Shown here piece by piece: positions 14,168 through 27,750 of a stretch of DNA of 32,000 nucleotides. This stretch comes from Candidatus Electrothrix sp. GW3-4 (GTDB lineage: Bacteria > Desulfobacterota > Desulfobulbia > Desulfobulbales > Desulfobulbaceae): positions 960,001 to 992,000 of the forward strand of contig NZ_CP147990.1 in assembly GCF_037902255.1 (NCBI RefSeq), written 5' to 3'. Position numbers and translations under genes: made by a program. Below the pieces are notes generated by a model. That model did no database searches. It worked only from the letters and a program-made list of their open reading frames with translations, and was not told the origin of the DNA. The first letter of the stretch is position 1. The number at the start of each line of letters is the position of its first letter.

Positions 14168-14992
14168 TCAATTTATAGCGGCGTGGAGTTCTGGTTCGCT
14201 AAAATCAAGTTCAATATAGCCTAAGATAGGAATTTTTATCGCCACGCCAGTGAGCAAATCCTGTTCGGAAAAAGTAAACCTGTAAATGTATTCAGTGCTT
14301 GTTCTTGCGGAAGAGTCAGCTGATGCGCTGCTTTTTTTGACCCTGTAATGATATTCGAGAGAATCAATTCCGTTTTTGTTTTCGGTGAGGTATGGTATCC
14401 CGAACTGTTGCACAAGCGCATCCTGCTTTACTGAAGACAGTGTATGGTTAATGTCAACATCTCCTCCTCTGTACCTGACTTCTCTGTTCCTTTGGTCGAG
14501 ATCCATATCGGATTGCCCCATATATTTGCATAAGGCAATAAAGAAGTCTTTTGACAGGGCGGTAAAGAAACTCTCTGGAAAGTATATGGCATGTAATTTT
14601 TCGTTTTGATACCTTGTATCAATTGGGAAATCGTAACTTCCTGTTTCTGCCTGATTGTCATTGTACATTTTTTCGAGGATATGTTTCCAGATTGTTACCC
14701 CTGATTTGGTTTTCTGAGAGACAGGATAAAGGCCCAGCCATTTGATATCGTTTCCATAAAGGGTTGGCCTCAAAAATGAGAACGTGAGTCCGTCCTTTTT
14801 ATCTACCACGATATACTTGTCAAACTGCGTAAATTGTTTTCTTAGCGCGAGTATCCGAAGATATACGCAACTACTCATGGTAACAGAAAAGCATATCAGG
14901 ATGAGGATCAAGAGCGTTTTTTTCGATGGGAGCGTGCCGGAAATTTTCTTATCTGCCGTTTTTGAGAATCCGATGCCTGTCATTCCGTTCAT
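14168..14992 (-). CDS. hypothetical membrane-anchored/exported protein (274 aa)
   Basis: Long ORF with one N-terminal hydrophobic segment (LLILILICFSVTMSSC, a possible lipobox). No recognisable domain. Confidence 0.55.
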   Translation of the reverse strand: MNGMTGIGFSKTADKKISGTLPSKKTLLILILICFSVTMSSCVYLRILALRKQFTQFDKYIVVDKKDGLTFSFLRPTLYGNDIKWLGLYPVSQKTKSGVTIWKHILEKMYNDNQAETGSYDFPIDTRYQNEKLHAIYFPESFFTALSKDFFIALCKYMGQSDMDLDQRNREVRYRGGDVDINHTLSSVKQDALVQQFGIPYLTENKNGIDSLEYHYRVKKSSASADSSARTSTEYIYRFTFSEQDLLTGVAIKIPILGYIELDFSEPELHAAIN

Positions 14993-15184
14993 TGGGTTCG
15001 CTCCTTTATGAAATTGGTCGCTTTCGAAAAGGTCATGTTGTGTATCTATCCTGAGCAGCAGTATAATGGACCCCTATTCTTGGACAGCTATTTAAGGTAG
15101 ATTTTTTTCTAAAAATGCTGAATGTATTTTGGTGCGCTTGGCACGAGTCCGAAATTCATACAGCCACTACCGGAGAATCTACGC

Positions 15185-15463
15185 ATGTCACGTAAAAGAA
15201 GAGTCCACTCAGCTGCATTTAAAGGAAAAGTTGCACTTGAAGCACTGAAAGAACTAAAGCCGATTAATGTACTGGCCTCCCAGTATGAGATTCAGCCAAA
15301 CCAGATTAGCACCTGGAAAAAGCAGCTAAAAGAAGGAGTAACCGAAATATTCAGCCGAAAACGCGGTAAAGCAAAAGATGATTCCCGCAAGGCTGAAAAA
15401 CGCTTATACGAAGAAATCGGTCGTCTGAAAATGGAGCTGGACTGGCTTAAAAAAAAAGTCTGA
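15185..15463 (+). CDS. IS3-family transposase OrfA (HTH)
   Basis: MSRKRRVHSAAFKGKVALEALKE.....LASQYEIQPNQISTWKKQL....LYEEIGRLKMELDWLKKK. It ends in an A9 run. GGAGAA RBS before the ATG at 15185. Confidence 0.9.
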   Translation: MSRKRRVHSAAFKGKVALEALKELKPINVLASQYEIQPNQISTWKKQLKEGVTEIFSRKRGKAKDDSRKAEKRLYEEIGRLKMELDWLKKKV

Positions 15464-15599
15464 GCCCTACTCGGATCCCCTTGATTTAATTGATTCTCAG
15501 CATAGGTCGATCAGCATCCAGAGGCAATGTGAGCTGCTTGGCATCAGTCGATCCCGCTATTACTACAAGCCAGCGGTTGAGAGCGAACTGAACCTCAAA

Positions 15600-16292
15600 T
15601 TGATGCGAATTATCGATGAGATCTACACCGACTGTCCTTTTTACGGAAGCAGACGGATGGTCATCGAGCTGGAACGGCGTGCTTTTCATGTTAACAGAAA
15701 ACGGGTTCAACGGTTGATGCGCCTAATGGGGCTTGAGGCTATTTACCCGAAACCGAAACTAACTCATCGGAATATTGAACACAAAGTTTATCCATACCTT
15801 TTGAGGAACATCTTGATTGATCGTCCCAATCAGGTTTGGAGCACTGATATCACGTATATTCCGATGCAGAGCGGTTTCATGTATCTGACGGTAATTATTG
15901 ACTGGTACAGCCGATACATCCTCAGTTGGCGTATATCCAATACGATGGATAACGATTTTTGTGTCGAAGCTCTTGATGAAGCATTAACTCATGGATTACC
16001 CGATATTTTTAATACAGATCAGGGAGTGCAATTCACAAGCAAGCAGTTTACACAACGCCTGACAGATGTTGATGTAAAAATCAGCATGGACGGCAAGGGC
16101 CGAGCACTGGATAATATTTTTGTCGAGCGTCTTTGGCGTACAGTAAAGTACGAAAATATCTACCTGAAAGACTATCGAAATGGCAATGAGTTATACCACG
16201 GTCTGGAAGAGTATTTTTCGTTTTATAACACTCGACGTCCTCATCAGTCTTTGGGGTACAGATCTCCTGAAGATATTCATTATTGCTCATGA
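15600..16292 (+). CDS. IS3-family transposase OrfB (DDE/rve integrase core)
   Basis: Motifs: YGSRRM, NQVWSTDITYI, IIDWYSR, FNTDQGVQFTS, FVERLW.T.KYE, YN..RPHQSLGY. The frame stays open upstream to the A9 run (..LKKKSEPYSDPLDLIDSQHRSISIQRQCELLGISRSRYYYKP..), so an OrfAB fusion is expected. Confidence 0.9.
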   Translation: MMRIIDEIYTDCPFYGSRRMVIELERRAFHVNRKRVQRLMRLMGLEAIYPKPKLTHRNIEHKVYPYLLRNILIDRPNQVWSTDITYIPMQSGFMYLTVIIDWYSRYILSWRISNTMDNDFCVEALDEALTHGLPDIFNTDQGVQFTSKQFTQRLTDVDVKISMDGKGRALDNIFVERLWRTVKYENIYLKDYRNGNELYHGLEEYFSFYNTRRPHQSLGYRSPEDIHYCS

Positions 16293-16490
16293 GATACAGT
16301 CAAACAAATATAGGAGGAAATCACCAGATAAGAAAGTTTGTTGTTAGCCCGAAATCTATCTTAAATTATGCTAAATTTTGTGTTGACTATGGGGTCCACT
16401 TTACAGTAAAACAAATATCAGTCTGTTTAACAAGGCAATCTCCCAGGCGGGAGTAAAAAGCGGGCCTTCACCTGGTAAAGAGAAGCCGCT

Positions 16491-16806: not shown

Positions 16807-19149
16807 TTACGGAACGTTATGCCTGCCGGTACCATTCATCTGCGCCAGATATTCCTGTAATCGCTTATGGATGAAGTGGTAGCTTCCACCGACTCGTTGC
16901 AGCAGTTTGCGTTGGTGCAGGTCTTCCAGCCAGATTACCAAGCGGAATGGCAGTTGCCCTTCTTGCCAGAGAAGCACTCTAAGTATATAGTGCCCCAAGA
17001 CAATGTCAGCACCGAGAAGAATAAAACAACATATTGACAACATAAAGTAACCATAATACAAGAAGGGTATGTTGAAAAAATATCCTTCGATATTAAAAGA
17101 ATAGGCCAATAAATTTACTCGGACAAAAATAAGCATGGCTGCTGTGCTGAAAACAGGGGCCAATAACAAACTGCTTCGTACAGCGTAAGTAAGACCTTGA
17201 CCGGGAAACGCTGCGTCCAGCACTGGATTTTCAAGTTTCTTCAACCCGAAGGTGAGCCCGAAAGTTACCCCAATAGCCAATCCCAAAGATACCCCTGCAA
17301 CCAACCCCAAAGCTGGACCGAAGATCAATCCTGCCATCAGTCCGTAAACCAGCCAGACAGTGAAATCTATAATATTTTTTTTCAAGTTTTGAAAAAAAGA
17401 GATTGAAACGGGTCGTTTTATCTTCCCGATTATTTCAATGTGTTTTAGATCGGTATAGCCTGTAGGATATATTCCTGAGGACATCGCGGTTGAAAGCAGC
17501 CCTAATGCCAGCCCGAACACTATTGCATAATTCGGCCCCGTAGCCACCAGCCCTTCAGATAACGCATAATCCAGCCGATAAGGCAGCAGCACATAAGCTA
17601 GCAGTCCCAAAAGAGCCAAGGCGAAGGCCGCATAATAAAACACAAGAGTTGCTGTCCATTTCTTGGAGCCAAGTAACCATATAAATAATTCATGCGTTAG
17701 CAGTGCGGATAGTCCGTAAGCTAGCCCGAAAGTCATCCCGCCAAAGGCCAAGCTTCCAGCCAGGACTACAGAACATCCTATAATTAATCCGTAAATCAAA
17801 ATATACGTCGTTTTAAATCTCCGACTATGATTCAGCCAACTCGGCTGCATCTCTTCAATTCTAAGTTCCACCATCCCTTCGGAGGTCATCCTGTCAGCCA
17901 AACACCGAAGCCAATATAGCGCCTGCTTTTCAGTGTACCTGTAACGCCTTTCACTCGGAGTTTCCGAGCATAGTCTACCGGACGGTGTTCCTCTCAGGCA
18001 GCAATTTAAATAAAGCCTCCAGAGAAACTGTTCCGCATCCTCTCCCCTCTTCATCCCGGCATGACCGGTCAGCAGTTTTCCTTCTTCCAGCTGAAGCATA
18101 ATGCTGAGGAAAAGAGGCCTGCCAGCCAGCTCCATCAGTGTTGGTTCCGCCTGAAGAAGCCGCCATAAATCCTCCAGCTTCTCCTGCCTGAGATATGCTT
18201 CCAGTCGTTGCGCCGAGATATCATGAAGAACGAGAGCATTATTTAGCTGCACTTTCTTTTTCAGTTGTCGGTACTCCGTGACCCGGCAGCAGAGCAGCAT
18301 GGGGTGACCGTGCTGAAAGGCGTTGAAGGCCTCGACAAACCTCTCTTGCAATTCTCCCTTGAGTTCATCCAGACCGTCGAAGAACGGAAAAATAAGCTCA
18401 CCTTGAATCAGCTTTTGGGCCCGTTCCTTCTTGAGATCATATTTGACCACCAGCTGATGCGCCATCCAGGCGGGCAGGGTCCCTCCATTCCATTCCGAGC
18501 ACTCGAACACCACCGGCAGAGGGTTCTGGATATCCTGTTCCGCTGCCTCCAGGATGTGGTCGAAGATCCGCAACAGGCAGGATGTCTTGCCACTCCCCGG
18601 TTTGCCCAGGATTGCGAGCCGTTGATTGATGTCCGGCTGATTGAAGATCTCGACTACATCGCGTTCGATGGTTCGTGCCGTGCTTCCTGCCTGTTCCAGG
18701 GAGTATTCAATGACCTTCTCCCGCAGGGAATGGGCCCGTGAGACGTCGGTGGGCGAGAAGTTTTTGGGCAGCGTAATAGAGCCGTGTTCACCGAAAAAGG
18801 ACTCAAGGCGACAGGAGAGATCATTGCGAAAGCGCCTGAGCAATTGCTCTCTCAGCCAGGGAGGACAGAGGTCCTCTTGTGTTGCCTGCATGGAATTCCT
18901 CGACTTGCCCTCGGGCTGCGCCTCAAGCTCTTGCAGCTCTTTTTCCAGTTGCCACCTGTCTTCCTTTACTCGGGTGATAACCTGATCCAGGCGAAAGCGT
19001 TCCTCGGTACGGGTTTCTCTTATTCTGTCCCTCTCTAACTCAGCAAGTTGTTGCGTTAACAGCGTCCACTGGGTCTGTATTTCTTCCTTGCTGGAAGAGG
19101 CTTGCCGGTTATGGAGCATACAGTCTTTTTCCTTTGCAAGGCAATTCAT
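16807..19149 (-). CDS. NACHT-family STAND NTPase with N-terminal coiled coil and an inserted polytopic glycine-zipper membrane domain
   Basis: Walker A is ILGKPGSGKTS (aa 180-190). Walker B is LIFPFFDGLDEL (aa 252-263), followed by LLCCRVTEY and GRPLFLSIML. About 8 hydrophobic helices occupy aa ~447-725, including GLMAGLIFGPALGLVAGVSLGLAIGVTFGLTFG. The C-terminus is GGSYHFIHKRLQEYLA, the NACHT winged-helix signature. An alternative start is the ATG at 19119, which has AAGGA upstream. Confidence 0.8.
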   Translation of the reverse strand: MNCLAKEKDCMLHNRQASSSKEEIQTQWTLLTQQLAELERDRIRETRTEERFRLDQVITRVKEDRWQLEKELQELEAQPEGKSRNSMQATQEDLCPPWLREQLLRRFRNDLSCRLESFFGEHGSITLPKNFSPTDVSRAHSLREKVIEYSLEQAGSTARTIERDVVEIFNQPDINQRLAILGKPGSGKTSCLLRIFDHILEAAEQDIQNPLPVVFECSEWNGGTLPAWMAHQLVVKYDLKKERAQKLIQGELIFPFFDGLDELKGELQERFVEAFNAFQHGHPMLLCCRVTEYRQLKKKVQLNNALVLHDISAQRLEAYLRQEKLEDLWRLLQAEPTLMELAGRPLFLSIMLQLEEGKLLTGHAGMKRGEDAEQFLWRLYLNCCLRGTPSGRLCSETPSERRYRYTEKQALYWLRCLADRMTSEGMVELRIEEMQPSWLNHSRRFKTTYILIYGLIIGCSVVLAGSLAFGGMTFGLAYGLSALLTHELFIWLLGSKKWTATLVFYYAAFALALLGLLAYVLLPYRLDYALSEGLVATGPNYAIVFGLALGLLSTAMSSGIYPTGYTDLKHIEIIGKIKRPVSISFFQNLKKNIIDFTVWLVYGLMAGLIFGPALGLVAGVSLGLAIGVTFGLTFGLKKLENPVLDAAFPGQGLTYAVRSSLLLAPVFSTAAMLIFVRVNLLAYSFNIEGYFFNIPFLYYGYFMLSICCFILLGADIVLGHYILRVLLWQEGQLPFRLVIWLEDLHQRKLLQRVGGSYHFIHKRLQEYLAQMNGTGRHNVP

Positions 19150-19403
19150 GCGTCTGCCTGTCGAGTATCTATTTATTCCTGCCTGTTGTTGTCCATGAAA
19201 GGAAACGACTCAATATCAGGACGTTTTGAACCTTATTGGTCAAAAATAACAGAGAACGCGCTTTTGTCAAATGCGGAGTTGCAAGAGGGGAGGATATCAC
19301 ATGATAAAGAGTGGGTAGTCTCTATATTACAGGGCAAAAACGAAGTGCGCAGTGATGAGGGGGATACAGCGGGATCTTCCAGATTTGAATCCCAGAGGCA
19401 GGG

Positions 19404-19442
19404 CAAAAAAAAACCGGGTTACGCGCCCCGCACGCACCCGGT
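19404..19442 (-). terminator. rho-independent terminator after the two-CW gene
   Basis: Minus strand has ACCGGGTGCGTGCGGGGCGCGTAACCCGGT followed by TTTTTTTTT. Confidence 0.75.
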
Positions 19443-19465
19443 ACCTTATGAATTCAACAGACAGA

Positions 19466-19750
19466 CTATACAATAGCGAGTAACTCTGTATCTTCTTTCC
19501 TGATCATGTTGTAAAAATCACATTCATGGCATTTAATAAATCCTTCTTTACACCGGCAGCCGAACGTGTCTTCTGATAGATATGTCGAAGCCACAACCCA
19601 ACAGCAACGGCCACCATTTTTCCCATCATGGATTCCATCGGCTCTTTCATCAATCGTAGCAGGACATACTCCGTGCAGAAAGGTATTTCTACCACCAGGT
19701 TCTCTCCCGCAATCCATAACCTCCCAGCAGTTTAAATGCTCCCTTTTCAT
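19466..19750 (-). CDS. stand-alone Cys-rich 'two-CW'-type domain protein (94 aa)
   Basis: Start set at the ATG at 19750 (GGAGGAGAAAGT upstream). The product is MKREHLNCWEVMDCGREPGG......GVCPA.......DGIHDGKNGGRCCWVVA......F.C......C.ECDFY. I recognise this pattern as the two-CW domain usually found at the N-terminus of deltaproteobacterial sensor kinases (from memory). Confidence 0.65.
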   Translation of the reverse strand: MKREHLNCWEVMDCGREPGGRNTFLHGVCPATIDERADGIHDGKNGGRCCWVVASTYLSEDTFGCRCKEGFIKCHECDFYNMIRKEDTELLAIV

Positions 19751-20196
19751 ACTTTCTCCTCCTGCCAAAAACGAAAATTCCATGATGTACAAAACGATTC
19801 AAAAAACACCGAGACCTGATTAAGGATAACTTTTTGTACCTCATGAGGTCCTTGTTTAATTTTTACAACAATTCAAAAAATTGTACAATGGGGAAAAATA
19901 GACGAGGAAAAGGGGAGAAAGCAGTGAAGCGGTGGGTGAGGGATATTGTCGGGCAGATCTTTGCTGTTTCATTCCGAGCCCTCGCGCTGGTATCTTTTTG
20001 GAATTTTTTGAGAAGAGCAAAGAAAACAAATTTGTCAAACAGCGTCTGTGGTGAAAGATGAGCAGGATGAAAGAAGTTCTGAATAGTTTGCCACCTGTCG
20101 ATGATTGCATTATACTGCCGAAATACTATGACTTCAACGCCGATCCGTCCAGGACGGATAATCAGTCCGTAACTCCATCGCCCTGTTAATCGCCTG

Positions 20197-23100
20197 ATGA
20201 AACCAGACAACACACCCCCTGCCCGAAGCCCTTGGCGCAAATGGCTTTTTCTTTTCCTCCTTCCTTTCCTGATTCTGTTCGTTGTCCTCTTTTTGGCTCT
20301 GACGAGCGAATTCGGCTTTCGGCTGTTACTCCGCACGGCAGATACCCTGAGCGGACCTGTGTTTTCTGTACAGGAAATAGAGGGGCGGCTGCTGAGTCGC
20401 TGGCGTCTGGGCAAGGTGCGGGTCCATATTGACAAGGTCGTTGATGTGGACCTGGATGAGCTGGTCTTTGCCTGGTCCCCTGAGATGTTGTTTCAGAAGA
20501 GACTGGTTTTGCATCAGGTGGCTGCCCAAGGGTTGGTGGTGCAGTTGACTGGGAATGAAAACAAGGAGGAAAAAGAGGAGAGAGAGGGGCCGCTTGCCAT
20601 GCCGACCATCAAACTGCCCTTGGATATTGACCTTGAAGACCTGCACCTTCGTGAGGGTAAGATATTTTTTTCTGAGCAGGGTAACCCGCTTGTCATTCAA
20701 GAGGTTATCTTGCAGGCCAAGGGCCGCAAGCAGCAACAGGAAACGCAGCAGGCCAGCCAGCTCGATATTCAACGGATTAAACTGGACCTTCGCGATTACG
20801 GGGTGGATCTTCAGGGAAAGGTCGCCTTCCATGATGGCTGGCCCCTTGCGCTGAAAGGGACGTGGCGGGTTGCCGATCCTGGCATCAACGATCTTGACGG
20901 GACTGCGGACTTGCACGGGGATCTGAATGATCTGGCTGTCTTCCTAACCCTGGTTACACCGGCTGAGGTCACCCTGGAGGGCAAGGTGACAGATATTTTG
21001 AACGATCTTCATTGGCAGGCCGCAGCCAAAACCGGTCATTTCCACCTCAACGATATCAAGGTCGATGTCCCTGTAGACGGCACCCTGACCATTGTCCAAG
21101 CATCGGGCACTGTGGGCAGCTATCAAGGAACCCTGGCCGCAGATATCCATTATGAGGGCTATCCGCCAGTTCAGGCTGAGGCCAAGGTGATTGCTGAGGA
21201 TTATACCGGTCTGGCCATTGAATATCTTGCTGTTCATCATGGGGACTCCACCTTGAGCACCCGAGGCAGGATGAAGTGGATAGGTGGTTTTTCCTGGCAG
21301 GCAGAGCTGGAGGGAAAGGCGCTTGATCCCTCCCTGGTTGCGGAAAGATGGCCAGGGAAAATCAATGGGCTGATTCAGAGTCAGGGACAACTCGGCGCCT
21401 CAGGGACCTCGCTGGAGGTGAATATCAATACCCTGAACGGTGAGCTGGCCGGTTTTCCCTTGCAGGGCAGCGGCGGGATGGCGTTGAATAAGCAGGGACT
21501 GCTGTTCAATGACGTGCATGTTCAGGCCGGTTCTGCGCAGGCCGAGATTGACGGACGCATTGCCAAGGATAATTCGTTGGACCTCAAGGTCCGGGTGGAA
21601 TCAGAGGATCTCTCTGCCTTTTTTCCTGAGTATGCTGGCAGTCTCCATTTGCAAGGCACCGCCACAGGCAGGCAGGAAAATCCTGGGCTTGATTTCGCAC
21701 TGGAAGGGGCTGATTTGCACCTGGCAGGCTATGATTTTGATAAAATCCAGGCAAATCTTGCTGCTGATCTAGTCATGGAAGGCGAAGAGAGCGGTATGAA
21801 GATCAATGACCTGCATTTGCTGGTTAATGAGGATATGGTGCTGGATGTCATTGGTCAGCTGGGCTGGGCCGAGGGTATTTCCTGGCAGGCGGAATTGACG
21901 GGGAGTAATCTGAATCCAGGACTTTTTTTGCCTGAATGGCCGGGAAAGATCCAGGCCAGGATACGCTCGCAGGGAAGTAAGACGGCGGAGAAGTTGCTCG
22001 CCACAGTTGTTCTTGATGAACTGAGCGGTGCCCTGCGAGACCTCCCTTTACAGGGCAGTGGTGCTGCTGCGATTGACAGCAAGAAGATACAGGTTGATGC
22101 CTTGCACGTGCAATCCGGTTCCACCAGCCTAGATGTTGATGGAAAGGCGGATGAGGAACAGCTCCATTTCACGGTTCAAGCCCGTTCCGATGACCTGAGC
22201 CTTCTGGTGCCCGAGCTCAAAGGTGCGTTTACAGCGACAGCTGAAGCGCAAGGGGTCGCTGCTCAGCCAGATGTGCAGCTGACCTTGAATGGTTCAAAAC
22301 TCGTCTTTCGCAATTATTCCCTGCAAAATCTGCAAACGGATCTGAAGGCAAAGCTTGTTGTGCAGGGAGAGGAGCAGGGGGCCACTGTGGATGACCTGCA
22401 ATTGGTTCTGAATAAAAAGAGCAGGCTTGCAGCACAGGGGAAAATTGGCTGGAGTAAGGGGATTTCCTGGCAGGTCGACCTGACAGGGGAGCAGCTTGAT
22501 CCTGCCCTGTTTCGTCCAGAATGGCCTGGGAATATCAAGACCGAGATCCATACCCAGGGAGAGAAAAAAGCAGAGACGCTGACGGCCCAGGTCCAGATAA
22601 AAGAACTGGCAGGAAAACTGCGTGATCTCCCGCTCTCCGGGAGCGGTAAGGTTGAGCTGAACGACAAGCAGATTCTGATTGATAAATTGCGCCTTGGTTT
22701 GGGATCGGGGTACATCCTGGTGAATGGCTCGGCTGATCCTAGCCAGCATTTTGATCTCAGCTTTGCAGCGGAATCAGAAGATCTGGCTGGGGTGCTGTCA
22801 GGGGCTGAAGGAAATGTTCAGCTTCAGGGAACGCTGAAGGGAAAGGCCCAGCAGCCTGATCTGGACTTGAAGATCAAGGCCGGAAAGGTGCGCTATGAGG
22901 GATACCAACTCAAGCAGCTCAACGGCAGGGTCAGGGCTGATCTTGCCGAGCAGGGGAAGATTGATGCGGGCCTCAAGGCCTCCGGGATGCAGGTTAAGGA
23001 GGAAAGGATCAATATGGCTTCTTTGCAGATTCAGGGCAGCACAGATCAGCATAGCCTGGAACTTACCCTTGATGGGACACCGGGAAAGGCCCTGTTGGCA

Positions 23101-24963
23101 GCGAGCGGTGGGCTCAAGGAACAGACTTGGCAGGGCGAATTGACCCGAATGACCTTTGAGCATGAGCAATTCGGTCAATGGGCAATGCGTCAACCTGCTG
23201 GTCTGCATTTTTCTGCCAAGGAAGCAGCACTTTCCGGTTTTGATCTGCGCCATAATAAGGATAAGAATCTTAAAATTGCCTTAGATGGCGATTGGAAGCA
23301 GCAAGGTTCCTGGCAGGTCAAAGGAGCTATCGATAATTTTGCCCTCAAGCTTTTGCAGGAATGGCAGTTGTCGGTTCCTGATCTAGAGGGGACAGCAAAG
23401 GTAGAGTTGACAGCCCAGGGACGGGGGGGAAAGCCGGAACAGGCATTGATCACCATGACCTTGCCCAAGCTTTCCCTGACCACGGAGAGTTTTGAGGATA
23501 ATGGGGAAGAAGTGGGTACTACGGTCTGGACCTGGACCAATAATATTATCGAGGCTCGCCTTCAGGATAAGGTCACCCGTTTACATGCCCGAACGGAATT
23601 CCAGGATAATAGTGATGCAGACCTGGAAATTCTCGTAAAGAATTGCAGCGACTTCAGCAAACCAGAAAAAATGCCCTTGAGTGGTCAGCTGAATCTCAAT
23701 ATGAAAGACCTCACCCCGATAGCCCATCTCACCAATGAGGTGGTTCAGGCCACGGGAAGATTTGGCGGCCGCATCCTTTTTGGGGGTACTGCCCGTAAAC
23801 CCACGGTGAACGGTAAGTTGGCTTTGAGTAAGGGCAAAGAGAAAAAAGGCGAGATTTTTGTGGCTGCTGCCGGAATAGGGCTGGAGGATATTCAGGTCTC
23901 CCTGGAAGGAGATAGTACATCCAATAAACTGGATGCGCAGCTCCGCTCCGGGGAGGGCACACTGAAACTCTCTGGTACGGCGCGCCAGGGTGCTGACCAA
24001 CACTGGCTGGCCGATGTTGTCATCTCCGGTGAGAATTTCCAGGCAGCAGATCTTTCTGAATATCGTGCTGTGATCAGTCCAGAGCTTCGCCTGCGCTATG
24101 CGGAAACAGGAACTCGGCTCAGCGGTACAGTGGTTCTGGACAAGGCAGAAATCGCTCCGACAGGATTCAGCGGTGCAGCCTCTTCCTCTGCTGACGTTAT
24201 CGTGATTGACGACGAGCAGGCAGTGAAGGGTACTTCGCCCATGTATCTTGATCTGCAACTCGTTATGGGTAAAGAGGTGCTGGTGAATACCTTTGGCCTG
24301 AAGGGGTATCTTGATGGCAGTTTAAAGATTAAGGCTAAGCCAGGTCGTCCGATTACCGCCCTTGGCAATCTTGATCTCCGGGATGGCACCTTTGATTTTG
24401 AGGGGAATATGCTGGAACTCAGCCAGAGTCGGGTCTTTTATCAGGGAGGGCCCATTGATGATCCAGGGCTGGATATTCTGGCATCAAGAACGATCGATAA
24501 GGTCGAATTGGGCGTACGCCTCACCGGGACGGCGAATAATATGGAAATGCGCCTGTTTTCCGATACGGCTATGGATGAATCAGAGATCCTCTCCTATTTA
24601 TTAACCGGTCAGGATATCTCGAAGTCATCCTCAGATGGTGAGGAAAAGGCGCTTTCTCCAGCAGCAGCCACCTTGGGCAAAGTTGGCGGTGGCGTCCTGC
24701 TCAAGACCGTTGATCCCCTCAAGACCCTTGATATGGAAGGTCTCGTGGATCTCAGTATCGGTGGGGGCGAGGACGCTTCAGACGTGTCTCTGGTGATGGG
24801 CAAAGAGATCTATAAGGACCTCTATATCAGTTACGGCAAGGATCTTACCGGAGCTGGAGGTACCTTCAAAGCTCGTTATGATCTGAAGTATGGTTTTTCC
24901 GTTGAAACGGCGACCAATGCCAAGACCAGCGGCGCTGATCTGCTTTGGTCATGGGAACATTAA
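20197..24963 (+). CDS. tamB: TamB / AsmA-like translocation-and-assembly-module protein (DUF490 C-terminus), 1588 aa
   Basis: N-terminal membrane anchor (WLFLFLLPFLILFVVLFLAL), a very long beta-rich body, and a C-terminal DUF490-type end: LRLFSDTAMDESEILSYLLTGQ....LVMGKEIYKDLYISYG...........YDLKYGFSVE. Confidence 0.85.
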   Translation: MKPDNTPPARSPWRKWLFLFLLPFLILFVVLFLALTSEFGFRLLLRTADTLSGPVFSVQEIEGRLLSRWRLGKVRVHIDKVVDVDLDELVFAWSPEMLFQKRLVLHQVAAQGLVVQLTGNENKEEKEEREGPLAMPTIKLPLDIDLEDLHLREGKIFFSEQGNPLVIQEVILQAKGRKQQQETQQASQLDIQRIKLDLRDYGVDLQGKVAFHDGWPLALKGTWRVADPGINDLDGTADLHGDLNDLAVFLTLVTPAEVTLEGKVTDILNDLHWQAAAKTGHFHLNDIKVDVPVDGTLTIVQASGTVGSYQGTLAADIHYEGYPPVQAEAKVIAEDYTGLAIEYLAVHHGDSTLSTRGRMKWIGGFSWQAELEGKALDPSLVAERWPGKINGLIQSQGQLGASGTSLEVNINTLNGELAGFPLQGSGGMALNKQGLLFNDVHVQAGSAQAEIDGRIAKDNSLDLKVRVESEDLSAFFPEYAGSLHLQGTATGRQENPGLDFALEGADLHLAGYDFDKIQANLAADLVMEGEESGMKINDLHLLVNEDMVLDVIGQLGWAEGISWQAELTGSNLNPGLFLPEWPGKIQARIRSQGSKTAEKLLATVVLDELSGALRDLPLQGSGAAAIDSKKIQVDALHVQSGSTSLDVDGKADEEQLHFTVQARSDDLSLLVPELKGAFTATAEAQGVAAQPDVQLTLNGSKLVFRNYSLQNLQTDLKAKLVVQGEEQGATVDDLQLVLNKKSRLAAQGKIGWSKGISWQVDLTGEQLDPALFRPEWPGNIKTEIHTQGEKKAETLTAQVQIKELAGKLRDLPLSGSGKVELNDKQILIDKLRLGLGSGYILVNGSADPSQHFDLSFAAESEDLAGVLSGAEGNVQLQGTLKGKAQQPDLDLKIKAGKVRYEGYQLKQLNGRVRADLAEQGKIDAGLKASGMQVKEERINMASLQIQGSTDQHSLELTLDGTPGKALLAASGGLKEQTWQGELTRMTFEHEQFGQWAMRQPAGLHFSAKEAALSGFDLRHNKDKNLKIALDGDWKQQGSWQVKGAIDNFALKLLQEWQLSVPDLEGTAKVELTAQGRGGKPEQALITMTLPKLSLTTESFEDNGEEVGTTVWTWTNNIIEARLQDKVTRLHARTEFQDNSDADLEILVKNCSDFSKPEKMPLSGQLNLNMKDLTPIAHLTNEVVQATGRFGGRILFGGTARKPTVNGKLALSKGKEKKGEIFVAAAGIGLEDIQVSLEGDSTSNKLDAQLRSGEGTLKLSGTARQGADQHWLADVVISGENFQAADLSEYRAVISPELRLRYAETGTRLSGTVVLDKAEIAPTGFSGAASSSADVIVIDDEQAVKGTSPMYLDLQLVMGKEVLVNTFGLKGYLDGSLKIKAKPGRPITALGNLDLRDGTFDFEGNMLELSQSRVFYQGGPIDDPGLDILASRTIDKVELGVRLTGTANNMEMRLFSDTAMDESEILSYLLTGQDISKSSSDGEEKALSPAAATLGKVGGGVLLKTVDPLKTLDMEGLVDLSIGGGEDASDVSLVMGKEIYKDLYISYGKDLTGAGGTFKARYDLKYGFSVETATNAKTSGADLLWSWEH

Positions 24964-26528: not shown

Positions 26529-26605
26529 GCGCCCGTAGCTCAGCTGGATAGAGCATCGGACTTCGAATCCGAGGGTCGCAGGTTCGAATCCTGCCGGGCG
26601 CACCA
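26529..26605 (+). tRNA. tRNA-Arg (anticodon UCG)
   Basis: Hand-folded cloverleaf: acceptor GCGCCCG/CGGGCGC, D arm GCTC..GAGC, anticodon stem TCGGA/TCCGA with loop CTTCGAA, T arm GCAGG-TTCGAAT-CCTGC, and an encoded CCA. Confidence 0.9.
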
Positions 26606-27267: not shown

Positions 27268-27750
27268 AACATCCCTCCTGGTATTGAAGAATTTGAAAGT
27301 AGGTAACCCGGCTGTCTCTATTGTCTTAGAGACCCGTGGCTTTCCGACACCGCCTCACGACGGCTGTGGCTTTATCAACTTTCTGGCTTACTCCATCCAG
27401 AAAGTTTGTTATATCAAAGAGCCTGCTATAAGAAGCTGAAAAAGAAATTTTCAGGTGACTATATTATTTTATACCGCCTTAAGCATAATGATGTCAAGTG
27501 TCTTTAAAAAGAAACTACCAGAAAAGAAATATTCTTAGATGAAGCAGCTTTTTAGATCGATTCGGCATGTCGGCCAATCGGTATCACATCTCAACGTCAG
27601 ACCCTGTTCATCCGTCTAAAATGGTCTCTTGTGGGCTTGGGCGGTTATTTTTGACGGCATGTCACGCTGGCAAGCGCAATAAGAACTGTATGTATTGCGG
27701 GTCGTACAGGTAAAAATTGAAATGCGCAGTGAAGCGGGGTACAGGGCGGG

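Follow-up and report, generated by a model that had tools for sequence, protein, structure and literature searches.

A NACHT-type NTPase of a cable bacterium with a predicted eight-helix membrane block set into its winged-helix domain

What would an NLR-like NTPase do with a polytopic membrane domain in the place where a C-terminal repeat sensor is usually found? The question is raised by a gene on the reverse strand of a 32,000-nt stretch of the genome of Candidatus Electrothrix sp. GW3-4 (contig NZ_CP147990.1, positions 960,001 to 992,000), which was analysed as a whole and is called the window below. According to the ORF listing, the gene is an intact open reading frame (ORF) of 780 codons plus stop (16807..19149, reverse strand, stop codon at 16807-16809), and its product combines a NACHT NTPase core with a long hydrophobic block. 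The original prediction for this locus had suggested that its product may be a single polypeptide uniting sensor, NTPase and membrane effector. The NACHT NTPase and the polytopic membrane domain stand, but the effector position assigned to the latter is not supported as proposed, as the block is a constant part of the family and occurs beside N-terminal effectors. We regard the chances as evenly balanced that the protein is an integral inner-membrane, NLR-like STAND switch with its membrane block in the sensor or anchor position, which is where STAND logic would put it, because the block is constant while the N-termini carry the effectors. Its role is likely to be conflict or programmed-cell-death signalling in a multicellular filament.

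The NACHT module is genuine, with a complete set of catalytic motifs (K188, DGLDE, R289, P345 and His761) and an apparently intact active site. The motifs read from the sequence in the original prediction are all present where it had placed them, namely the Walker A motif GKPGSGKTS (aa 182-190, nt 18580-18606), the Walker B motif FFDGLDEL (aa 256-263), LLCCRVTEY (aa 285-293) and GRPLFLSIML (aa 343-352). The Pfam NACHT profile PF05729 matches aa 178-323 with 29.1 bits (E=1e-6; gathering cut-off 26.7 bits), a significant but marginal match that passes narrowly, and precomputed PF05729 matches exist for most of the homologues. The D-G-L-D-E sequence of the query Walker B also fits the D[GAS]hDE pattern, a signature that parts NACHT proteins from other STAND NTPases (Kibby et al., 2023). 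An alignment of 137 family sequences revealed G182, G187, K188, R289, P345, F759 and H761 to be invariant, with D258, G259, L260, D261 and E262 conserved in at least 90% of the members. Structural comparisons were based on an AlphaFold2 (AF2) model built from 42 homologues (mean pLDDT, the per-residue confidence score, 81; pTM, the predicted template-modelling score, 0.74). Foldseek searches of this model against the PDB returned as top matches NOD2 (5irm, E=1e-7), NLRC4 (4kxf, 5e-6) and NLRP3 (7pzc, 7e-6), followed by NLRP9, NAIP5 and then ORC/Cdc6, while a viral fold library yielded AAA+ and NLR-like matches only. Besides, the family profile A4 aligned by hhalign with bNACHT01 over the nucleotide-binding domain (NBD) and helical domain 1 (HD1) with a probability of 93.4% and E=2.5e-7. 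Thus the canonical NACHT core of the original prediction is borne out by its Walker A and DGLDE Walker B motifs, the PF05729 match and the NLR folds.

The model further suggests that a membrane block of eight predicted transmembrane (TM) helices splits the winged-helix domain (WHD), entering it behind the first helix and strand. The half in front of the block contains YWLRCLADRMTSEGMVELRIEEM (aa 412-434), which opens with YWLRCLADRMTSEG, and its residues L414, L417, A418 and E432, together with Q435, are conserved in at least 90% of the 137 sequences; the half behind the block contains YHFIHKRLQEYLA (aa 757-769), and the predicted cytoplasmic end of TM8 (H720, L723, R724) runs directly into it. 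Between the two halves, Kyte-Doolittle hydrophobic segments cover aa 445-729, and AF2 predicts TM helices at aa 442-469, 472-494, 498-532, 534-560, 583-614, 616-637, 651-684 and 694-729. A polytopic hydrophobic block of about 280 aa, lying between the region that normally opens the WHD and the C-terminal family motif, had been proposed originally and is found in this place, between the first WHD helix and the WHD His signature. The even number of helices expected in the original prediction is found as well: the predicted topology is N-in and C-in, with both ends cytoplasmic, in agreement with 17 Lys and Arg residues on the predicted cytoplasmic loops and flanks versus one on the periplasmic side. 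On the periplasmic side, the predicted loops measure no more than about 2-17 residues.

The split of the WHD is supported by the tail of the family profile, which aligns to residues 438-449 of NLRC4, the WHD motif TYKFFHKSFQEY, which contains the ADP-contacting His443; this alignment falls short of proof, as the stretch alone contributes about 2 bits. Two other comparisons did not add to it. After in-silico deletion of aa 442-716, the query gave spurious P-loop matches only and no continuous WHD alignment against the PDB, and the hhalign alignment with bNACHT01 ended at the GxP motif, so that it provides no independent proof of the split. Searches with the isolated block (aa 441-731) found no Pfam family at E<=10, and NCBIfam had nothing useful to offer for the protein. 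Because the protein stops 11 residues after the tail motif, it has neither a helical domain 2 (HD2) nor a C-terminal repeat sensor, the latter being missing as originally described.

A full HMMER scan of 1.84 billion representatives, with clusters defined at 50% identity, showed that the family is large, with matches in at least 1,808 clusters at E<=1e-30 and in 6,145 at E<=1e-10. The full architecture, defined as Walker A, then at least three hydrophobic segments, then the His tail 13-80 residues from the C-terminus, was present in 137 of the 168 Walker-A relatives that were fetched, and the tail lay solely before the block in just one (1/168). AF2 modelling of a TIR-bearing relative (P0019) gave the same split WHD, eight helices and short strands in the loops 4-5 and 6-7. 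The N-terminal regions, by comparison, are highly diverse: Pfam searches with 40 of them identified TIR (15), CHAT (4), protein kinase (3), EAD10 (3), EAD1 (2), EAD8 (2) and EAD7 (1) domains, besides HTH, SEFIR, BTAD, HNH and DUF4062 domains, and the TIR domain of another member (P0024) matches the Thoeris ThsB TIR model with E=2e-54. Since the N-terminal domains vary and the block is kept, the block is the constant part of these proteins and the N-terminus an exchangeable output slot. These fusions to TIR, CHAT, kinase, EAD and HNH domains also agree with the conflict or immunity type that had been suggested for the wider family.

The query fills the variable effector or adaptor slot, to judge from its sequence, with a charged helical hairpin (14 Lys and Arg, 16 Asp and Glu in 76 aa), which is shared with the orthologue of Ca. 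Electrothrix aestuarii, missing from the other paralogues and devoid of any Pfam domain. The N-terminal charged coiled coil of the original prediction corresponds to the two long helices that AF2 gives for this hairpin (Table 1). Other members of the cable-bacterial subgroup have a single TM helix at their N-terminus instead.

Within the family, the NBD and both WHD halves are the most conserved parts, whereas TM6-TM8 are moderately and TM1-TM5 poorly conserved. Several family motifs lie on the predicted cytoplasmic side, including 'IEELQP' in front of the block, 'I..vE.l.wS' in loop 4-5 (with an equivalent strand predicted in P0019 at 694-697) and 'P-N-Q-G-I..S..N' in loop 6-7, where the query reads FPGQG; further motifs are 'H..LR' at the end of TM8 and 'LQRVGG.Y.F.H..L.E' in the C-terminal WHD half. 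Cyanobacteria, mostly filamentous species, account for 49 of 80 genome loci and Chloroflexota for 19, the remaining ones being distributed over actinomycetes, Acidobacteriota, a few Pseudomonadota and the filamentous methanogen Methanocrinis. The clade is thus mostly concentrated in filamentous or multicellular prokaryotes. The nearest relatives of the query are all cable-bacterial (Ca. Electrothrix and Ca. Electronema). About 25 distinct cable-bacterial clusters were found, and the paralogues P0009 and P0011 come from one metagenome-assembled genome.

Table 1. Positions of the features of the NACHT gene in the window, with amino-acid identity to the syntenic orthologue of Ca. Electrothrix aestuarii
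Feature	Residues (aa)	Position (nt)	Strand	Identity to orthologue	Basis and details
Candidate sigma-70-like promoter, TTGACA-16-TATTTT plus extended TG		19243..19270	-		Consensus scan 10/12, pattern match only
N-terminal charged helical hairpin (coiled coil)	11-86	18892..19119	-	75%	AF2 helices aa 4-44 and 48-77, pLDDT 81-90
Pre-NACHT helical region	87-177	18619..18891	-	93%	Family alignments A1, A2, A4
Nucleotide-binding domain	178-300	18250..18618	-	85%	Pfam NACHT aa 178-323; Walker A G182-T189 (K188), Walker B D258-G-L-D-E262, sensor-1 R289
Helical domain 1	301-400	17950..18249	-		GxP motif GRPLFL, P345 invariant; aligns with NLRC4 'MKTPLFV' (family profile)
Winged-helix domain, N-terminal half	401-441	17827..17949	-		AF2 helix 407-423, short strand near 429; 'IEE(M/L)QP' motif (P436)
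Inserted membrane block, eight predicted TM helices	442-729	16963..17826	-	30-34% (TM helices)	Hydropathy, AF2, positive-inside count
Basic, predicted cytoplasmic loop TM4-TM5 with short conserved beta element IEIIGKIKRPVSIS	561-596	17362..17469	-		6 Lys and Arg; AF2 strand 575-577
Nine-glycine i/i+4 ladder	603-635	17245..17343	-		Motif position, shuffle test, AF2
Predicted cytoplasmic loop TM6-TM7, motif P-(N/G)-Q-G	638-660	17170..17238	-	61% (loop 6-7, PGQG)	AF2 strand 640-642; alignments A1, A2
Winged-helix domain, C-terminal half	730-770	16840..16962	-	91%	AF2 helix 737-746, beta-hairpin 750-759, Y757-H-F-I-H761, helix 762-770

The closed state of STAND proteins involves a contact between the WHD His and ADP; on activation, as ADP is exchanged for ATP, the WHD rotates away and the proteins can oligomerise. 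As the query has neither HD2 nor repeats, its membrane block is the sole element able to hold or release the WHD, and it is therefore most likely a tether combined with a sensor or autoinhibitor. We propose that the block, as the only module on the WHD, would replace the usual C-terminal sensor or autoinhibitor and would at the same time tether the switch to the membrane. The beta element of loop 4-5, the P-N/G-Q-G motif of loop 6-7 and the residues H720 and R724 would pass changes in the bilayer or envelope on to the WHD; candidate signals are damage to the membrane, its depolarisation, or a membrane protein of phage or foreign origin. Release of the WHD would then allow nucleotide exchange and oligomerisation, which in turn would activate the N-terminal module. 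For the query itself, the output might proceed via recruitment of a partner, via clustering, or via the clustered membrane blocks themselves.

A number of points speak against this placement of the block in a conflict-type switch. Neither the query nor its cable-bacterial paralogues contain an effector recognisable by Pfam, and about 23% of the family carry no N-terminal module at all (an N-terminal extension of at most 30 aa beyond the pre-NACHT helices in 29 of 125 members), so that their output cannot be N-terminal. The cable-bacterial members, the query locus included, sit amid housekeeping genes; no partner gene is conserved across the paralogue and relative loci examined, and PADLOC does not recognise the family, returning weak P-loop or TIR matches only. 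Contacts of the loops with the WHD are deduced from predicted secondary structure only. The tiny predicted periplasmic loops make the sensing of a periplasmic ligand unlikely, and a signal from within the membrane is more difficult to conceive of and to test. Besides, no signal, ligand or phenotype has been reported for any member of the clade. Finally, the divergence of the membrane block between orthologues, which is described next, would fit just as well with a block that merely anchors the protein and evolves under relaxed constraint.

This divergence became apparent from the comparison with the syntenic orthologue in Ca. E. aestuarii. Amino-acid identity is high in the domains on both sides of the block, lower in the conserved loop 6-7 and drops sharply in the TM helices (Table 1); DNA similarity vanishes over 17010-17778, and the boundaries of the divergence coincide with those of the insertion. 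Judged by the core, no other relative comes anywhere near the orthologue in similarity to the query (82% identity, 591 bits), whereas judged by the membrane block the orthologue is no nearer than distant homologues, all of which show about 30-36% identity. Synonymous divergence (dS) calculated by the Nei-Gojobori method (NG86) amounts to 0.63-0.84 in the flanks and to 1.9-3.9 in the block, where it is saturated, and the core has a non-synonymous divergence (dN) of 0.06 versus a dS of 0.72. Whole-codon identity at identical residues is likewise lower in the block (40/96) than in the flanks (252/376, p=1e-5), but four-fold sites, the cleanest test, differ non-significantly (43% versus 53%, p=0.39, n=30). 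The G+C content at third codon positions (GC3) of the query is 0.43 in the block and 0.61 in the rest of the gene, compared with 0.33 and 0.54 in the orthologue; the drop holds when only Gly, Ala, Val, Thr and Pro codons are counted, and it is weak or absent in distant family members. A foreign or cassette origin and codon selection in TM segments are both possible causes of it. The divergence allows two readings, in which the block has either been swapped as a cassette between paralogues or is diverging extremely fast in place. Hypervariable TM segments are typical of modules in the sensor position.

The foremost rival explanation makes the membrane block the executioner: NTP-driven oligomerisation of the NACHT module would gather Gly-zipper bundles, and the five-Gly face of TM6 would pack between protomers to open a lesion, leading to abortive infection or cell death. 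We consider this possible rather than probable. It draws on the absence of a recognisable enzymatic effector from the query, on the 29 of 125 members that consist of the NACHT module and the membrane block only, and on the wiring of the block straight into the domain that moves on activation. It also draws on the glycine ladder, which is real as proposed and highly non-random, since none of 20,000 shuffles of the membrane block reached its length; the block contains 12 GxxxG motifs compared with 3.2 +/- 1.6 expected. Glycine zippers reportedly often line homo-oligomeric channels, and TM6, which bears a five-Gly zipper, is conserved better than any other helix of the block (occupancy 0.88). The ladder does not lie on a single helix: AF2 puts it across a hairpin, comprising the end of TM5, the turn and TM6. 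Gly-zipper patterns occur in most helices of the block, whose hairpins are internally repeated (TM5-6 versus TM1-2, z=5.1; versus TM3-4, z=3.7; TM7-8 distinct), and both features rather fit tight intramolecular packing. The co-occurrence of the block with TIR, CHAT, kinase, HNH and EAD domains would furthermore make it a second effector in the same polypeptide, which is unparsimonious. The hypervariability of the TM helices between orthologues would be unusual for a pore lining, and a match of the block to a Gly-zipper toxin or pore family was not obtained even at E<=10.

Across the family, the longest Gly ladder has a median of six and a maximum of 15 glycines, and the total hydrophobic length of the block ranges from 85 to 364 residues. 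We take the block to consist of a conserved TM7-TM8 core to which a varying set of Gly-zipper hairpins is attached. The likeness to transmembrane glycine-zipper proteins consists in long GxxxG ladders along one helix face. The query has no profile match to Gly-zipper_Omp, Gly-zipper_YMGG or Rick_17kDa_Anti, even at E<=10, and differs from these families in carrying its zippers as internally repeated hairpins within a predicted eight-helix bundle. Membership in a Gly-zipper toxin family was rejected, as no such Pfam match to the block was found at E<=10.

For the effector-less members, sensing and killing may even be united in a single module. A NACHT ring with a WHD-inserted Gly-zipper bundle would then be a self-contained and constitutively membrane-embedded 'resistosome', in which the hypervariable block both senses an intramembrane cue and executes the response, becoming a lethal or sealing conduit on ATP-driven oligomerisation; paralogues might swap the block as a cassette and thereby diversify their specificity. 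Candidate cues would be a phage membrane protein, envelope damage or a loss of membrane potential that strikes a single cell of a filament with electrical coupling. We put this forward as a speculation that is improbable as a whole.

A second group of rivals comprises trans-acting and non-immune roles. The protein may be a sensor-only or helper-dependent NLR that signals in trans through hetero-oligomers with effector-bearing paralogues, in the manner of NAIP/NLRC4 or of plant sensor-helper pairs, or it may be a non-immune membrane scaffold, a factor under nucleotide control that serves the assembly or regulation of an envelope process in filamentous bacteria and has no role in phage defence. 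Taken together, we judge these two variants improbable. In their favour, cable bacteria possess multiple diverged paralogues that stand solitary among housekeeping genes: the query locus lies near a TamB gene, and the paralogues were found between glyQ and nadA, beside hemerythrin and ion-channel genes, and after a ribosomal-protein operon. The site between TamB and the lipoprotein-like gene is moreover syntenic in two species, the TamB, NACHT and 274-aa lipoprotein-like genes being 72-82% identical at the DNA level to their counterparts in Ca. E. aestuarii, and the lack of a PADLOC match points in the same direction. In addition, a STAND survey published in Nature in 2026 described defence and non-defence STAND clades as interspersed. 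The family is nevertheless fused to death or immunity effectors and to no housekeeping domains, no envelope-biogenesis partner is conserved across the paralogues, and hypervariability of one module among close orthologues is more typical of conflict genes.

One relative with caspase and EAD10 neighbours also speaks against a non-immune role. The contexts of cyanobacterial members are heterogeneous. The EAD10-bearing member of Mastigocoleus testarum adjoins a caspase gene and an EAD10-NB-ARC-WD40 STAND gene. The three genes of this cluster (L006/L007, 50-6947) encode EAD10-NB-ARC-WD40, caspase (Peptidase_C14) and EAD10-NACHT-TM proteins, and the two STAND sensors may share the one caspase via their EAD10 adaptors. 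The cluster resembles the arrangement described by Kaur et al. (2021), in which an adaptor recruits an effector. The survey of homologues for defence islands that the original prediction had called for thus gives a mixed picture, with a caspase/EAD10 neighbourhood in this relative, but loci of housekeeping type and no PADLOC system in the cable bacteria. Consistent housekeeping contexts, which were to tell against the original prediction, hold for the cable-bacterial homologues, while effector fusions occur across the family.

That the gene is decaying or non-functional, with an IS3-family element about 400 nt past its stop codon and the highly diverged block as signs of erosion, is very improbable, since the 780-codon ORF is intact with all catalytic motifs kept, dN in the core is far below dS, the block is still hydrophobic, periodic in Gly and biased towards positive charge on the inside and keeps the conserved loops, the insertion element lies outside the gene, and the identical protein is found on two contigs.

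The element itself (15067-16403; orfA at 15122-15463 and orfB at 15600-16292, both on the forward strand) is a clean 1.34-kb intergenic insertion between the NACHT and 274-aa genes and is missing from the syntenic Ca. E. aestuarii locus; an exact search found no terminal inverted repeats of at least 12 nt.

The coding sequence likely starts at Met11 of the ORF (ATG at 19119), which yields a protein of 770 aa. This start is preferred because an AGGA site lies 10 nt upstream of this ATG and none ahead of the ATG at 19149, because the database gene call (P0001) is the identical protein of 770 aa, and because the conserved frame of the Ca. E. aestuarii orthologue opens at MLHNR, equivalent to Met11 of the query. 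The promoter candidate lies about 95-125 nt upstream of the two possible starts. The idea that the N-terminal 86 codons are non-coding was rejected from Met11 on, given the identity of the orthologue over this region (Table 1). The public gene call of the orthologue (P0002, 719 aa; L002 9757-10000, CP159373) is apparently truncated at its N-terminus: the DNA 5' of the call encodes an in-frame coiled coil, opening at MLHNR, that is 73% identical to that of the query, resulting in a protein of 795 aa.

As to the neighbouring genes, a TamB homologue of 1,588 aa (20197-24963, forward strand) is divergent from the NACHT region, an arrangement that is syntenic in Ca. E. aestuarii. The gene for the 274-aa protein (14168-14992, reverse strand) lies downstream of the NACHT gene on the same strand; its product begins like a lipoprotein (...SVTMSSC) and matches nothing in Pfam or NCBIfam, and the gene is 82% identical at the DNA level at the syntenic position of Ca. 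E. aestuarii, being syntenic only in this closest species and not found beside the other paralogues. A cysteine-rich two-CW domain protein of 94 aa is encoded at 19466-19750 (reverse strand; NCBIfam NF045718, E=9e-27), followed by a hairpin with a T-run that was seen by eye but not flagged by the terminator scan. Because the segment of about 860 bp that carries this gene (19135-19991) is missing from the orthologous locus, where 74 bp are found instead, the two-CW gene is not linked to the NACHT gene. A conserved operon partner was accordingly rejected, as the neighbours differ among the paralogues and the two-CW gene is missing at the orthologous locus. Farther away, the region of about 25.6-28.3 kb is poor in long ORFs and contains a tRNA-Arg gene (anticodon TCG, 26529-26605, forward strand, found by ARAGORN and Rfam) and a match to the c-di-GMP-I-UAU riboswitch aptamer (27298-27379, reverse strand; Rfam RF03168, 66.0 bits versus a gathering score of 65.9, E=2e-12).

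With the bacterial NACHT (bNACHT) proteins of Kibby et al. (2023), the query has in common the D[GAS]hDE Walker B motif, the WHD His, homology to the validated bNACHT01, multiple TM regions inserted in the NACHT module, variable N-terminal effectors in a tripartite logic, and enrichment in multicellular bacteria. It differs from them in having no recognised effector, in lying outside a defence island and in being unrecognised by PADLOC. One sentence of their Supplementary Discussion (category 4) lists a class with multiple 'TM regions', placed either behind the NACHT module or within it, as the presumed sensor, and the query, with eight predicted TM helices between the WHD halves, falls into this class. 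The original prediction had regarded the architecture as uncharacterised; this holds insofar as no tested member was found in the literature, but the class as such had already been listed by Kibby et al. In the accessible part of their Table S2, none of the tested bNACHTs has the inserted TM architecture, and bNACHT13, as far as it is described there, differs from the query in having an N-terminal TM helix only; the accessible parts of Tables S1 and S2 contain neither TM strings nor cable-bacterial entries. Literature searches likewise found no characterisation of inserted-TM NACHTs, and neither NACHTs from cable bacteria nor NACHTs with glycine zippers were mentioned.

Animal NLRs (NLRC4, NOD2, NLRP3) are the best structural matches to the NBD-HD1-WHD core. 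They are soluble or peripherally membrane-associated and possess HD2 and leucine-rich repeat (LRR) sensors as well as CARD or PYD effectors, whereas the query lacks HD2 and LRR and has an integral membrane domain that interrupts the WHD. Plant CC-NLR resistosomes (ZAR1, Sr35) and fungal NLRs of the HeLo/HET-S type yield membrane-active assemblies through oligomerisation; these proteins are soluble until activated, when N-terminal helices form the channel, and the plant NTPase is of the NB-ARC type. They may resemble the query in having a coiled-coil-like helical module in front of the NTPase, but the N-terminal hairpin of the query is unlikely to insert into a membrane because it is highly charged, and the query carries a constitutive, polytopic membrane domain within its WHD. 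The KAP family sets a precedent for TM insertion in a conflict-associated NTPase, as its TM segments are reportedly inserted in the P-loop domain (Aravind et al., 2004, Genome Biol 5:R30), while the insertion of the query lies in the WHD. Membership in the KAP family was rejected, as there was no KAP_NTPase Pfam match at E<=1, the protein belongs to the NACHT clade, and its insertion is in the WHD. The exact insertion point, the in-in topology with almost no periplasmic exposure, the repeated Gly-zipper hairpins, the conserved cytoplasmic loop motifs and the extreme divergence of the block between syntenic orthologues were not found in the literature searched and appear to be new.

NLR and STAND immune switches have so far been characterised as soluble proteins with repeat-type sensors, and no experimentally studied integral-membrane NLR from any kingdom was found in the literature searched. 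Should the membrane block prove to be a sensor, it would reveal the way in which an NLR monitors a membrane; should it prove to be an effector, it would represent a minimal analogue of a resistosome that is built in, and a built-in channel would make it the first such integral-membrane NLR in any domain of life, as far as we could find. The TIR-NACHT-TM relatives (P0019, P0024) offer a direct enzymatic read-out for finding the trigger, and the sharp border between the conserved WHD halves and the hypervariable membrane cassette suggests a mode of diversification that can be tested. The query thus gives an entry point to an unstudied and very large class of integral-membrane NLR-like switches, and a death or sealing switch triggered by the membrane state would be of interest in cable bacteria, since the cells of their filaments are electrically coupled.

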